Part shown: in pieces, positions 7,107 through 27,860 of the stretch
Layout of the letters: every line of letters begins with the position of its first letter
Position numbering within the stretch: position 1 is the stretch's first letter
From: Eledone cirrhosa
Lineage: Eukaryota
NCBI GenBank assembly: GCA_964016885.1
Contig: CAXHJY010000829.1
Span: forward strand, 1-30,562
Reading direction: 5' to 3'
DNA: 30,562 bases
The notes under the pieces: generated by a model
Databases searched by the model: none
What the model saw: the letters and a program-made list of their open reading frames with translations, nothing else
Told to the model about the DNA's origin: nothing
Program-made: the position numbers and the translations under genes

Positions 7107-7229
7107 ATAGGAACGAGTAGGACCCCGACGGCTGAGCTCAAGCCGTTTCGACGGCTAATTCTGGACTGAGTCCAGAATTAGCCGTCGAAACGGCTTGAGC
7201 TCAGCCGTCGGGGTCCTACTCGTTCCTAT
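7107..7229. mobile_element. Perfect 123-bp palindrome, PLE-like family B, carrying the 3' half of an HHR on each arm
   Basis: 61-bp perfect arms with a 1-nt centre at 7168. Each arm reads C-GAAA-CGGCT(tgagctc)AGCCG-TC-GGGGTC. Confidence 0.8.
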
Positions 7230-8228
7230 TATTGTGTCTGCAGTATATATACATATATATATACAGTATATATACATACATATATTATTGTGTCTGCAGT
7301 ATATATACATATATATACAGTGTATATACATACATATATATGTATTTGTGTGTATATATACATATATATATTATATATATATATATATATATATATATAT
7401 ATATATATATATATACACACAAATACATATATATATATGTATATATGTATGTATATATACTGTATATATATATATGTATATATATATATGTATTTGTGTG
7501 TATATATACATATATATATATATATATATATATATATATATATATATATATATAAATATATATATATACACACAAATACACATATATATATGTATATATG
7601 TATGTATATATACTGTATATATATATGTGTATATATACTGTATATATATATATGTATATATACTGCATATATATGTATATATACTGCAGAAACAATATTG
7701 CTCTATTTTCAGTAATCCTTATATAGCTGATCTGGGCCGTATCAATGATGTTAATCCCCAATACACTTTATCGGAAATAACGTTTGGCGCCCCTGATGCC
7801 TTAGCGGCAATACACGAGATTAAACAGAATTCTGCAGTGGACCCTGATAGGTTCCCTGTTTGCGTCCTAAAGGTCTTCACCAACTTGCATCTCTTCTTGC
7901 TAATCTGTGGAGGAACTCACTGGATACTGGCTATATTCCTGAAAACTATCTGTCCCATTCTGTTGTCCCAGTTTACAAAAAAGGAAACCGGTCCCTTGCA
8001 GTGAACTACCGTCCGATCTCACTCAAATCTCATATTATCAAAGTCTTTGAGAGGGTGGAGAGATCATGAATAACCCATTTTTTTTCTTTTTTGAACAGAC
8101 TGCTGAACTCCAACCAACATGGGTTCCGTAATGGAAGGGATTGCTTAACGCAGCTACTGCATCACTTTGATGACATTTTGAGAGTTTGTGGAGAGGGCTC
8201 CAACACTGATGTTATCTACCTTGATTTC

Positions 8229-8602
8229 GGGGTGGATTGGCAGTATCAGTAGAGGGTCGGACGCCATGCTTTCCAGCATAGTTACGTCCCTTTACGATCT
8301 GAGTTCAAATCCCGCCGAGGTTGACTTTGCCTTTCATCCTTACGGGGTCGATAAAATAAAGTACCAGTAATACACTGGGTAATTGCTGGCCTTGTGCCTA
8401 AAGTAGAAACAAGTATTTTCATAATAAGGTTGGAGCCGCTGACTTAAAACACCAGAGAAACTTTCTATGAAATGCAATCTCATAGCTGACTTTCTAAAGC
8501 TATGATCGCCGGTTCAGGGAGGACTCTTTTGATAATGGGACTTAAGCCTCTATCGTTAAAACACCCGAAACGTTGAAAGGGAAAGTGCATGTCTACGTAA
8601 CA
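8229..8602 (+). mobile_element. tRNA-derived SINE (~8229-8412) plus ~190 bp extra sequence inside one TSD
   Basis: B box GAGTTCAAATCCC and central gcctttcatccttacggggtcgataaaataaagtacc. Perfect 18-bp TSD GTTATCTACCTTGATTTC at 8211-8228 and 8603-8620. Confidence 0.85.
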
Positions 8603-8826
8603 GTTATCTACCTTGATTTCATCAACGCCTTTGACAGGGTTGATCATAAGATTCTATTGAAAAAACTGTCCACTATTGGTGTCTCTGGACAGTTACTACA
8701 TTGGATCAAGTGTTTCCTGACAGACAGAACCCAGCATGTTGTAGTCGAAGGAGTGAAATCACGCCCAGCCAAAGACAGCAGTGGCGTGTGTTGGACCCAC
8801 TTCTTTTCATTATCTGTACTAATGGC

Positions 8827-22204: not shown

Positions 22205-25125
22205 GACTGACAGACATACACACATATATACATACAGACATACATACATATATATATATATATATATATATATATATATATATATATACAGACATACACA
22301 CGTATATACATACATACAGACATACATACATACATACATACATATATATACATACATATATATATATATATATATATATATATATATATACAGACATATA
22401 TACAGGCAGACATACATATATATATATATACAGACATATATCTATATATACACACGTATATACATACATATATACTGACATATATACATATATACAGACA
22501 GACATATATACATACATACATATATATATATATACAGACATATATACATACATACATACATATATATATACAGACATATATACAAACATACATACAGACA
22601 GACATATATACATACATACATACAGGCAGACATACATATATACAGTCATACATATATACATACATACATACAGGCAGACATACATATATACAGTCATACA
22701 TATACACAGACATATATATATATACAGTCATACATATATACAGACATATATATATACGGACATATATACATACATACAGACATACATATATACATACATA
22801 CAGACATACAGATATATATATACATACATACATACAGGCAGACATACATATCTACATACATACATATATATATACATACATATATATATATACAGACATA
22901 CATACATACAGGCAGACATACATACATACATACATATATACATATATACATACATACAGACCGACATACATACATACATACATACATACAGACAGACATA
23001 CATACATATATACACACGTATATACATACAGACATACATATATACATACATATATACAGAGAGACAGACATATATACATACATACATACATACGTACATA
23101 TATACATACAGGTCGACATACATACATACATACATATATACAGACAGACATACATATATACAGACATACATACATATATACACACGTATATACATACAGA
23201 CATACATATATACATACATATATACATACATACGTACATATATACATACAGGTCGACATACATACATACATACATACATACATACATACATATATATATA
23301 CAGACACATACATACAGGCCGACATACATACATATAGGCATACATATAAACATACATACATACATACATACATACATACATACATACATACACACAGGCC
23401 GACATATATACATACATACATACATACATACATACATACATACACACAGGCCGACATATATACATACATACATACATACATACATACATACATACATACA
23501 TACATACATACATACATACATACAGGCTGACATACATACACACAGGCCGACATACATACACACAGGGCGACATACATATATACATACATACATACATACA
23601 TATACATACATACATATATATATATATATACATACAGGTCGACATACATACATATACACATACAGGCCGACATACACACATACACACATACATACAGACA
23701 TACAGACACATAGACACAGAGCGACATACATATATACATACACACATACAGGCCGACATACATACATACATACATACACAGACACATACAGGCCGACATA
23801 CATACATACACACATACATACAGACATACAGACACATACATACATACACACAGGCCGACATACATATATACATACACACATACATACATACATACAGACA
23901 GACATACAGACATACAGGCCGACATACATATATACATACACACATACATACAGGCCGAAATACATACCTACATACATACATACACATACATACATACATA
24001 CACACACAGGCCGACATACATATATACATACACACACACATACATACATACAGACAGACATACAGACATACAGGCCGACATACATATATACATACACACA
24101 TACATACAGGCCGAAATACATACATACATACATACCTACATACATACATACACATACATACATACATACACACACACAGGCCGACATACATATATACATA
24201 CACACATACATACAGACAGACATACAGACATACATACATACAGACAGATTGATAGACAGGCAGACCGACAGGCCGGCAGACAGAAAGCCATACCGGCTGA
24301 CTGACTGACAAGGAAGCAGACGAGCACCACACATAATAAAAACATTCTCACCACATAACCCCCACCCAACCAATATCTCAACCACACACCCCCACCACCA
24401 CCATACACACTACAGACCGCCCTCTTACAAACACACACACACACACAAACAAACAACCGCTCCACCCCGAAATAAATAGACATACACACCACCACTACGC
24501 TTCGAGCACACACACAAGTACACACACACACACACACACACACACACACACACACACACACACACACATACACACATACACACACACACACACACATACA
24601 TACGGAGACACACACAGACAAACACATACATACGTACATATATGCTTACAAACATACATACGTACTTACACACTAACAAACATATATATACATAAGTACA
24701 TACATACATACATAATTACGAACAAATACATAGACAGATAGACACATACATACATACTTACGAACAAATACATAGATACATACATACATACATACATACG
24801 TACGTACATACATATATACATAATTACGAACAAATACATAGATATATAGATACATACATACATACATACATACATACATACATACGTACGTACATACATA
24901 CATACATACATACATACTTACGAACAAATACATAGATAGATACATACATACATATATACATACATACATACATACATACAAACAAATACATACATACATA
25001 TATACACACACACAGACACATTCACACATATATACATATATACATACACACACACAGACACATTCACACATAGATACATAGATACATTTATATATATATA
25101 TATATATATATATATACATACACAG
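22205..25125. repeat. Long (CATA)n/(CAGA)n-derived compound satellite
   Basis: Seen directly; variant words include caggcagaca, caggtcgaca, caggccgaca and ttacgaacaa. Confidence 0.92.
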
Positions 25126-26960
25126 GCACACTTCTTCAGAAAGTTTGCTGGCCACGCCAACCATACCAACCACCAAACCCGCCACCAAGCTATACCAGGC
25201 TGCCGGCAACCAGCCAAACGCCCAACCAGCCAGCCTGCCGAAGAGGTTTTCAGTTTTGGGAAGGCAAGCGATTCCGTCGGACGAAGGTCCGCTCGGTTAA
25301 TCGGCCTTTAGCTGGCTACCACAGCCTCCCAATCAAACCAAACATACATACATCCCGCATGCATACATACATGTAAAACATTATATACACACATATATAT
25401 ATATATATATATATATATATATATATATATATATATATTATATATATAATCATATATACAACATATACTCATATACTCAACATATACTCATACATAACTA
25501 CCTCTCTATATATCTGTCTATAAAGAAATATATCTATCTGTCTATCATATATATATATATATATATATATATATATATATATATATATATATATACATCC
25601 ATATAAATATAAATATATATATATACATCCATACATATAAATAAAATTTATATATATATATATATATATATATATATACATATATATATATACATACATA
25701 TATATACATACATACATACATTTATGTATACTAATTAAAATGTAAACACGAAATAGACACGATCGCATTCACGAACATCAATCTCTCTCTCCCTATATAT
25801 ATATATATATATATATATATATATATATATATACACACACATATATATATATACACACACATATATATATATACAAATATACATATATATATATATATAT
25901 GTACATACATACACGTATTACATATAAAAGCTATCACCACCCTCCCTAGATTTATTTCGCTATCTATAAATCTCTCAATCTTTCTTCATCTAAAGCTCAA
26001 CTCGTCACCCTTTCTACTGAATCACTATATATATATATATATATATATATATATATATATACTTACATGTGTGTATATGGTGTATATATATATACAAACT
26101 TTGCACATTTTTCTTTTTACCACCTGACAATCCGGACATCAATACAATATATCTTCATTTGAGGTGAGTTAACAAGTTTCTATTTCTTTCTGTTCTACAC
26201 GTTTCATCTCTCTCTCTCTCTCTCTCTCTCTCTCTGTATATACACACATATATATGCATATATATATATATATATATATATATATATATATATATATATA
26301 TATATATATATATATGCATATATGCATATTTATATATATATATGCATACATATATATATATATATATATATATATATATATATATATATATATATATATA
26401 TATATATACGATATTAAATAAATGGAAACTATATTTATTATATCAGTTATAAATATTTACTCGTTGTAACCCAACAATTTAAATAAAACTTTGCATATAT
26501 ATATATATATGTATACATACATATTTAGGTATATATATATATATATATATATATATATATATATATATATATATATATATGTGCGCATACGTAGATAAAT
26601 AGATACAAGGATATGCATATATATATATATATACATATGCATATATACATATATATATATATATATATATATATATATATATATATATATATATATATAT
26701 ATATGCATATATATATATATAGGCAAAGATACATAACGATTTTAATATCAACATTCAATAGATTTGCGACCCTCTCTCTCCTCTCTCTCTCTCTCTCTAT
26801 ATATATATATATATATATATATACATATATATATATATATATATATATATATATATATATATCCATTCCAATCTAATGCATTCTCACTCTTGCTAGAAGA
26901 ACCCCTTCCCTGGTTGACCCACTGCATTCTATTTTTATTTCGGTGATGACAGGGGGGTTT

Positions 26961-27656
26961 ATATATATATATATATATATATATAATATATATATATATA
27001 TATATATATATATATATATATATATTATACATATATATATATAATATATATATATATATATATATATATTATATATATATATATATATATATATATATAT
27101 ATATATATATATATATATATATATATATATAATATATATATATATTTATATTATATATATATATATATTTATATTATATATACATATATATATATATATA
27201 TATATATATATTATATATATATATATATATATTATATATATATATTATATATATATATAATATATATATATATATATATATATATAATATATATATATAT
27301 TTTATATTATATATATATATATATTTATATTATATATACATATATATATATATATATATATATATATTATATATATATATATATATATATTATATATATA
27401 TATTATATATATATATAATATATATATATATATATATATATATTATATATATATATATATAATATATATATATATTTATATTATATATACATATATATAT
27501 ATATATATATATATTATATATATATATATATATATATTATATATATATATTATATATATATATATATATAATATATATATATATATATATATATATATAT
27601 ATATATATATATATATATATATATATTATATATATATATATATATATATATATATA
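26961..27656. repeat. ~700-bp almost pure A/T (TA)n tract
   Basis: Only a few C bases; repeated TT/AA phase shifts. Confidence 0.95.
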
Positions 27657-27860
27657 AAACAAAGGATTTGTGGTAAGGAACCAGATGGACCATAACGCAC
27701 CAGAGTACTCAATACTTAGGGTAGTAGAGTGGGAAATAGGAAAAAGTATGACCCCGTCGGCAGAGCTCAAGCCGTTTCGACGGCTATTTCTGGACTAAAT
27801 TTAGTCCAGAAATAGCCGTCGAAACTGCTTGATCTCTGCTGTCGGGGTCATACTTTTCCC
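27657..27860 (-). mobile_element. PLE-like family B remnant with fold-back, third copy
   Basis: Colinear with 12598-12792. Arms 27739-27799 and 27800-27860 meet with no spacer (ctaaa|tttag). Confidence 0.8.

Follow-up and report, generated by a model that had tools for sequence, protein, structure and literature searches.

Background

The closest described relatives of the element treated here, a Penelope-like element (PLE) that we call family B and that is represented by three palindromes in a 30,562-nucleotide contig of Eledone cirrhosa (the window: positions 1 to 30,562, forward strand, of CAXHJY010000829.1, assembly GCA_964016885.1), are the PLEs of the Hydra clade. In the parts of Craig et al. 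2021 (PMC8557442) drawn on here, these are described by a reverse transcriptase (RT) followed by a GIY-YIG endonuclease, RWK and DKT motifs, a CxCX5C linker, no CCHH motif, CxxC and CxH around the E and N, a (TA)n target, a hammerhead ribozyme in the pseudo-long terminal repeat (pLTR), an inverted truncated copy at the 5' end and a one-sided tail. Family B is alike in all these respects, its first motif being RWK-like, but its tail measures 77 nt rather than 30-40, its unit about 3.5 kb rather than less than 3 kb, and its ribozyme core is U3-A8 or C3-A8; the same parts of that paper attribute the tail to endonuclease resolution and describe no fixed 5' stop. Penelope of Adineta vaga (Arkhipova et al. 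2013, PMC3846280, in the sections consulted) likewise has head-to-head pLTRs, a one-sided tail and TATA- and initiator (Inr)-like pLTR motifs; its palindromes were read as products of self-priming, probably on an antisense template, whereas family B points to two primings on a sense RNA. In the consulted text of both papers the origin of the inverted copies is stated as open, with self-priming and sense or antisense templates under consideration. Poseidon_Ac (Frangieh et al. 2024, PMC11167929) resembles family B in start sites that lie near the start of the open reading frame (ORF) and delimit the tail, and its ribozyme activity is not needed; it belongs to a different clade, and the excerpted text describes neither head-to-head products nor run-off at the transcript 5' end. 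The hammerheads of PLEs, as far as the consulted part of Cervera and de la Pena 2014 (PMC4209133) goes, are of type I with a palindromic helix III and a U3-A8 covariant, and occur as opposite-strand motif pairs 100-700 bp apart, a likeness to family B. The latter differs in its long helix III (6 bp plus an 8-nt palindrome), in a loop II of about 30 nt that appears to hold a promoter, and in that most of its copies keep only half a ribozyme.

For family B we regard it as probable that both ends of a cut target prime on one RNA, at +97 and +20 (numbered throughout from the hammerhead cut site, directly after GUC), run off at the likely transcription start, and are joined to each other as a palindrome. 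In LINE-1 twin priming two target ends prime one RNA to give a head-to-head inversion, and in retroviral strong-stop DNA the run-off at the RNA 5' end yields a short cDNA of defined length. Family B departs from both in that its primings fall at fixed sites, its copies overlap in sequence and its run-off products are integrated. Miniature inverted-repeat transposable elements (MITEs) of DNA transposons are also short, very numerous, palindromic and flanked by TA; family B, in contrast, lacks equal terminal repeats, has a variable centre and is continuous with an RT ORF.

The palindromes and the element behind them

Each of the three palindromes is flanked by (TA)n tracts, and arm pairing confirms the places and the 1-, 8- and 0-nt spacers (7168, 12731-12738 and 27799/27800) given for them in an earlier sequence-only reading of the window, 40/40, 38/40 and 38/40 of the first 40 positions being paired in copies 1, 2 and 3. 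Copy 1 comprises two short arms and no long arm: a left arm on the minus strand (7107..7167; -41..+20, (TA)n at its end) and a right arm on the plus strand (7169..7231; -41..+22, without tail, GUC at 7207-7209) around a central G at 7168. In copy 2 a minus-strand long arm (12600..12737; -41..+97, or from -44 with one mismatch, (TA)n at its end), which contains the 3' half of loop II and stem II, GAAA, the palindromic stem III, GUC, the 3' strand of stem I and the 77-nt tail, faces a plus-strand short arm (12739..12792; -34..+20, (TA)n at its end, GUC at 12770-12772), and the 8-nt "spacer" is in fact the long arm overrunning the short one. Copy 3, which belongs to a different subfamily, has a minus-strand long arm (27659..27800; -45..+97) whose first base is the A that we propose below as the transcription start, and a plus-strand short arm (27799..27860; -45..+11, diverging to about +17, GUC at 27841-27843) that overlaps it by 2 nt. 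The claimed short-arm end some 20 nt past GUC holds for copy 2 (+20) and for copy 1 (+20/+22, both arms being short), and copy 3 ends at about +17. CUGANGA is indeed missing from all three palindromes; GAAA-stem III-GUC, said to be kept by every copy, is found on at least one arm of each, but copy 3 has GAC in place of GUC on its long arm.

The 19-mer of stem III has 62,608 exact matches in the genome and its reversed control none, so the palindrome sequence is not due to chance; nor are the palindromes an artefact of long reads, since many distinct family B head-to-head joints are found in short-read contigs from one sample. Exact matches were likewise counted for the tail (27,388), the +20 end in TA (20,231), the 5' side of loop II (4,790), the sequence upstream of the ribozyme (1,636, in one subfamily group) and the ORF start (192), all reversed controls giving 0, and family B is present in tens of thousands of copies. 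An Rfam scan had no hammerhead among the best 150 of 482 matches, and microRNA matches to the palindromes were rejected as hairpin artefacts.

Upstream of unfolded family B copies we found an ORF with an RT and, at its C terminus, a GIY-YIG domain, bearing the motifs FDIE/YRDDGL and VIYQC..YIG (loci L150-L155 in our numbering). Its Atlas clusters carry RVT_1, GIY-YIG and HTH_animal at 0.94-0.98, and it has 1,334 homologues; direct Pfam and NCBIfam scans of the ORF returned 0 families, and a PDB search nothing usable. The ORF carries LRWRTFF (RWR), SDKTG (DKT) and the CxCX5C linker CNCPDGSIC, its endonuclease lacks CCHH (with only one Cys between VIY and YIG) and has CNLCSEE (CxxC) and CKH (CxH), and on these motifs together with the (TA)n target we assign it to the Hydra clade; the Neptune clade, with a CX2-5CxxC linker and CCHH, was rejected on the same linker and the same absence. 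One locus (L150) is a tandem with a 3,522-nt period. Where copies stand in tandem, the ORF start follows on from the tail at about +190, so that +20 and +97 are close to both ends of the coding transcript, the 5' end no less than the 3' end. A partially tandem pLTR, an inverted 5'-truncated copy and a tail at one end reproduce the architecture of endonuclease-bearing (EN+) PLEs, and the same +97 and +20 ends recur in long versions with arms of up to 3.4 kb. By sequence, then, the palindromes are head-to-head pairs of 5'-truncated pLTRs of a Hydra-clade PLE inserted in (TA)n, where a target duplication is unreadable. The sequence-only reading was borne out in taking its source for a ribozyme-bearing retroelement; a MITE identity was rejected on the unequal ends, the diversity of junctions (below) and the RT partner. 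A non-LTR retrozyme, defined by tandem units each with a complete hammerhead (bioRxiv 10.64898/2026.07.22.740005, in the part consulted), was rejected on the head-to-head half-ribozymes and on tandem arrays (L231, L469) that also lack the 5' half of the core.

The order in unfolded copies is TTACCCC, core, stem II (loop of about 30 nt), GAAA, palindromic stem III, GUC and GGGGT. With helix I as ACCCC/GGGGU, a helix III of 6 bp, and core, GAAA, NUH and three helices in place, the predicted ribozyme is a type I hammerhead. The expectation that unfolded copies would show GACCCC-CTGANGA-stem II was right in that such copies exist (TTACCCC-core-stem II) and wrong as to the core: CUGANGA is rare, searches for it yielding 26 matches of which about 5 are true unfolded copies and the rest chance or other families, and the usual cores are UUGANAA (U3-A8, only N7 varying), in 22 of the 30 unfolded arms that form the least biased set, and CUGAGAA, in 4/30 of these and, with its 3-8 mismatch, in 40/101 of a set enriched for the other subfamily. 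U3-A8 is a published hammerhead covariant (PMC4209133, in the part consulted). A subfamily with the CUGAGAA core (L117-L146, L383, L393), whose C3-A8 mismatch is predicted to impair cleavage, was amplified beside the U3-A8 subfamilies, in line with a ribozyme that is dispensable for insertion. In the predicted fold of L150 a small bulged hairpin (-4.4 kcal/mol) directly follows +20 (+21..+50); a similar one after +97 (+98..+125) was seen by eye, but the copy tested was predicted to fold otherwise.

Arm ends across copies

The arms sampled are those at the first places listed on C1 for three patterns (tail, stem III and +20), while ORF-bearing copies come from C1-C3; loci chosen as long, unfolded or query-like were left out, and 30 loci from a query-biased match set were excluded from all counts. 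Among 93 short head-to-head pairs, 81 combine one +97 arm with one +20 arm, and unpaired copies (L039, L052) also end at +20 in TA. At the other end the arms terminate abruptly: of 155 sampled arms 122 reach -30, and 105 of these end at -47..-30, 2 at -100..-48 and 15 further on, which amounts to 0.075 ends per nt at risk in the stop zone as against 0.0024 in -100..-48. The fall in genome matches from stem III to the 5' side of loop II agrees with these figures. The 5' ends are distributed alike on both arms. In the 81 pairs the short arm extends further 5' in 37, the long arm in 30, and the two are equal in 14; where they are unequal by at least 15 nt the short arm is further in 16 pairs and the long arm in 3. 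The ribozyme cut site as an arm end shows no clear peak (8/155 arms at -3..+1; 1/89 ORF-bearing arms).

The two arms of a palindrome share their source, subfamily variants being present on both arms in 47 cases and on a single arm in none at +6, and in 45 and 5 cases at +11, with a difference of 2.9% within pairs as against 7.7% between pairs. The junctions fall into 71 classes in 81 pairs, recurrent classes occurring in different subfamilies, and 64/81 range from a 5-nt overlap to a 4-nt insertion. Shared variants and distinct junctions together mean that every palindrome had its own origin, from a single source element; the sequence-only reading was correct both on this independent origin and on the variable centres. 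An apparent G-to-C difference of the long arm was rejected as ascertainment from a private change in the query (1/54 in the unbiased set).

The ORF-start-bearing copies indicate what the stop depends on. From 192 matches, 90 loci gave 89 arms (L232 was dropped, being of the same array as L231); 47 of these reach -30, and 39 of the 47 pass the stop, compared with 17/122 arms overall (p 3e-17). A fold that blocks RT should stop ORF-derived cDNAs too, and their passage marks the stop as a property of the template's end. The other 8 of the 47 begin at the stop and run into the ORF, which fits a transcript starting there. A 3' splice site or lariat branch at the stop was rejected by eye: the arms hold bases 5' of the AG, and the centres show no shared exon.

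The tandem arrays L231/L232 (C1:27.01 Mb; 257-nt unit, -44..+213) and L469 (C3:214.147 Mb; 273-nt unit, about -64..+210) have the same join point just after the ORF start and are folded into palindromes with +97/+20 ends; they may derive from a mini-circle or from repeated template jumps.

Promoter-like motifs at the stop in several families

TATA boxes about 30 nt before a pyrimidine-A start are characteristic of the RNA polymerase II core promoter. In family B, TATTTAAA, TATTTATT, TATTCA(A/T)A or TATTTAT-like boxes lie 25-27 nt before TC^ATTT (^ marks the stop), and further pyrimidine-A sites at -41 and -36 lie near other stop peaks. Family D (16,736 genome matches) has 14/30 arms starting at -1..+8 of CC^AGATT and 0 at -36..-2, with TATAAATA beginning 30 nt upstream of the stop; family E (11,502 matches) has 15/30 arms starting at -1..+10 of CC^AGATG, with TATAAAA beginning 30 nt upstream. 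Family A (14,167 matches) stops at TTTTC^A, 69 nt before a canonical core; 11/14 of its short arms start at 0/-1, 8/33 long arms at -2..+2, and 11/33 long arms pass well beyond. Two family A features lie in the window, an unfolded plus-strand copy (6042..6301) with the stop A after TTCTC at 6047, 69 nt before CTGATGA at 6116, and a head-to-head pair with tail (423..703) with a canonical CTGATGA at 612; a single truncated arm of family E (27904..28120, minus strand) adjoins copy 3. CA stands at the stop in all four families. Relative to core position 3 the stop lies at -69 in A, -42 in E (core read by eye), -6 in D and +41 in B, and in the predicted folds it is the first base of helix I in D and the base of a predicted stem in A. 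The earlier claim that the three palindromes turn inside stem II agrees with family B, where the stop lies in the stem II loop region with -45 at the predicted apex; families A, D and E stop outside stem II. An extra G, such as a copied cap might leave, precedes the stop A in 7/12 (A), 4/5 (D), 1/3 (E) and 3/18 (B) non-C cases, some of these bases being possibly templated. A shift of the stop with TATA spacing between subfamilies of B is weakly indicated (-43 is reached by 9/45 versus 12/32 arms; p 0.12 by Fisher's test and 0.046 by a rank test). These motifs suggest that the stop is likely the transcription start of the pLTR, at about -45 and inside loop II in family B. In the Penelope of D. 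virilis, according to the consulted part of PMC2377424, the promoter lies in the pLTR, and the 3' pLTR can drive downstream transcription.

Several points weigh against this reading or limit its reach. It rests on sequence; family A has no TATA box, with an initiator-like motif only, and the TATA-like box of family B lies at -25/-27, not -30. Families D and E were selected with their TATA boxes already in view, only the stop positions then being tested on new copies, and 30 incidental arms of family G show no sharp stop. The stop of family B spreads over about 10 nt, peaking at -45, -41/-40, -37 and -35, and falls at the apex that is predicted for the extended stem II. The 39/47 ORF-bearing copies that pass it need longer templates, by read-through, a circle or a template jump; later deletion at palindrome centres could be the source of some unequal arms; and the sample consists of first places on C1 (C1-C3 for ORF-bearing copies), in which the arms of one element are not independent.

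For families C, C2, F, H and I the incidental loci were too heterogeneous or too few for stop analysis. Unfolded copies of family E contain, by eye, a minimal U3-A8 hammerhead (UUGAAAA, GCAG/CUGC, GAAA-CCGG-UA), and family C, a third hammerhead family, is unfolded in the window at 29378-29430 (TTTTAT-CTGATGA-stem II-GAAA-TATATA-TA). In family F (L228, L201, L163) 5' ends cluster near CAAGATGGCG, which we take to be a YY1-like site, as at LINE-1 start sites. A further type of TA-flanked palindrome (L093:2-327; also L164, L223, L233, L281) has arms that start with a tRNA-like gene followed by a non-tRNA tail; in L093 ARAGORN predicts tRNA-Ser on both arms and the palindrome turns at the tRNA 5' ends. 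It is possibly a tRNA-headed short interspersed nuclear element (SINE) moved by the Penelope machinery.

Two proposed primings on one RNA and the alternatives

We propose that both ends of one cut in (TA)n would prime on one sense RNA, at +20 and +97, and that both cDNAs would be extended until they run off at its 5' end, with early stops more frequent in the trailing +97 copy, as the 16 versus 3 strongly unequal pairs suggest. The cDNA ends would lose 0-10 nt and then be joined, likely by end-joining repair. Use of the start sites next to the transcript 5' end would give a short palindrome, and long and tandem copies would require priming at the 3' repeat and longer templates. The template could be the 5' end of the element mRNA, or else an RNA made from one of the pLTR copies that bear a promoter, of which there are several thousand. 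As the 5' half of the hammerhead would lie upstream of the transcript start, CUGANGA would be missing without any fold-back. In vitro, the Poseidon_Ac protein PAc cuts both DNA strands and extends them, starting at two internal sites that set the limits of the tail (PMC11167929, in the part consulted).

The best surviving alternative, though an unlikely one, is that a single +97-primed cDNA runs off the RNA 5' end, snaps back by microhomology and primes the second arm, which is then cut or annealed at +20, with later erosion of the centres. The shared variants of the arms and the short overlaps at many junctions would fit this; self-priming has been proposed for Penelope palindromes (PMC3846280, in the part consulted), and TAT at +18..20 could anneal to (TA)n. 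Snap-back of a tail-primed cDNA should, however, leave the long arm longer, and in 51/81 pairs the 5' reach of the short arm equals or exceeds that of the long one, which speaks equally against the self-primed second strand of the sequence-only reading. A later long-arm deletion would thus be required in each of the 51, and for L202 (arms -45/-1051) the scheme fails outright; the short arms of L202, L221 (-202/-567) and L105 (+56/-104) could not be templated by the long cDNA, and the unpaired L039 and L052 end at +20 as well.

To the possibility that twin priming proceeds as proposed and the stop is instead a processed RNA 5' end, made by a nuclease cut in the loop, a decay boundary or a protein block, we give a low probability. 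The stop does fall at a predicted loop apex in B, at the first base of helix I in D and at a predicted stem base in A, but the CA at the stop in four families and the TATA exactly at -30 in two speak against processing, as does a distance from the ribozyme core that varies from -69 to +41.

A ready-made palindromic master, MITE-like or a non-autonomous retro-copy, amplified whole and with centres differing by deletion, would account for the common outer limit of the centres and the few recurrent junctions; it is very improbable, given that no inherited arm-specific variant is seen, that the ends are unequal, that the same architecture occurs with arms of up to 3.4 kb, and that the stop is common to at least 4 subfamilies, which have their variants on both arms and agree with ORF-bearing copies. 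Least probable of all is the route of the sequence-only reading, a cDNA folding back at hammerhead stem II to self-prime its second strand: about 86% of arms do turn in the stem II loop region, at the predicted apex, but a fold-back on a natural hairpin would leave the hairpin 5' strand in the long arm, and 0/81 long arms pass -50 or keep that strand, while arm lengths are symmetric, ORF-derived cDNAs pass the stop and other families turn elsewhere.

Other features of the window

The window also contains tandem arrays at 942-1500 (51-nt unit), 20021-20600 (217-nt unit) and 12124-12329 (96-nt unit), and at 7730-9360 decayed reverse-transcriptase fragments of a long interspersed nuclear element, split, by eye, by two SINE-like insertions.

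Conclusions

The inverted 5'-truncated copy with a one-sided tail, (TA)n targeting, pLTR hammerheads and self-priming as an origin of palindromes are already published. Searches of openly accessible main texts turned up neither a family-specific 5' stop at promoter motifs nor its reading as a start site; this family may be among the elements listed in PMC8557442.

With slightly more confidence than doubt, we suggest that PLEs routinely use both cut ends to prime close to their own transcript's 5' end and integrate the run-off, strong-stop-like cDNAs as palindromes, on a sense template, such by-products outnumbering ORF-bearing copies more than 100-fold and their centres forming a fossil map of start sites; in family B the promoter would have moved into loop II. 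A promoter there would leave the ribozyme foldable only in a downstream or read-through repeat. CUGANGA-based ribozyme searches miss family B, and TA-flanked palindromes, which number tens of thousands in genomes of this kind, are open to misfiling as MITEs or microRNA hairpins. A stop that differs between families and follows promoter motifs rather than the ribozyme argues for a sense RNA template on which priming takes place twice; if this is true, the start sites of PLEs would be readable from genome sequence alone.

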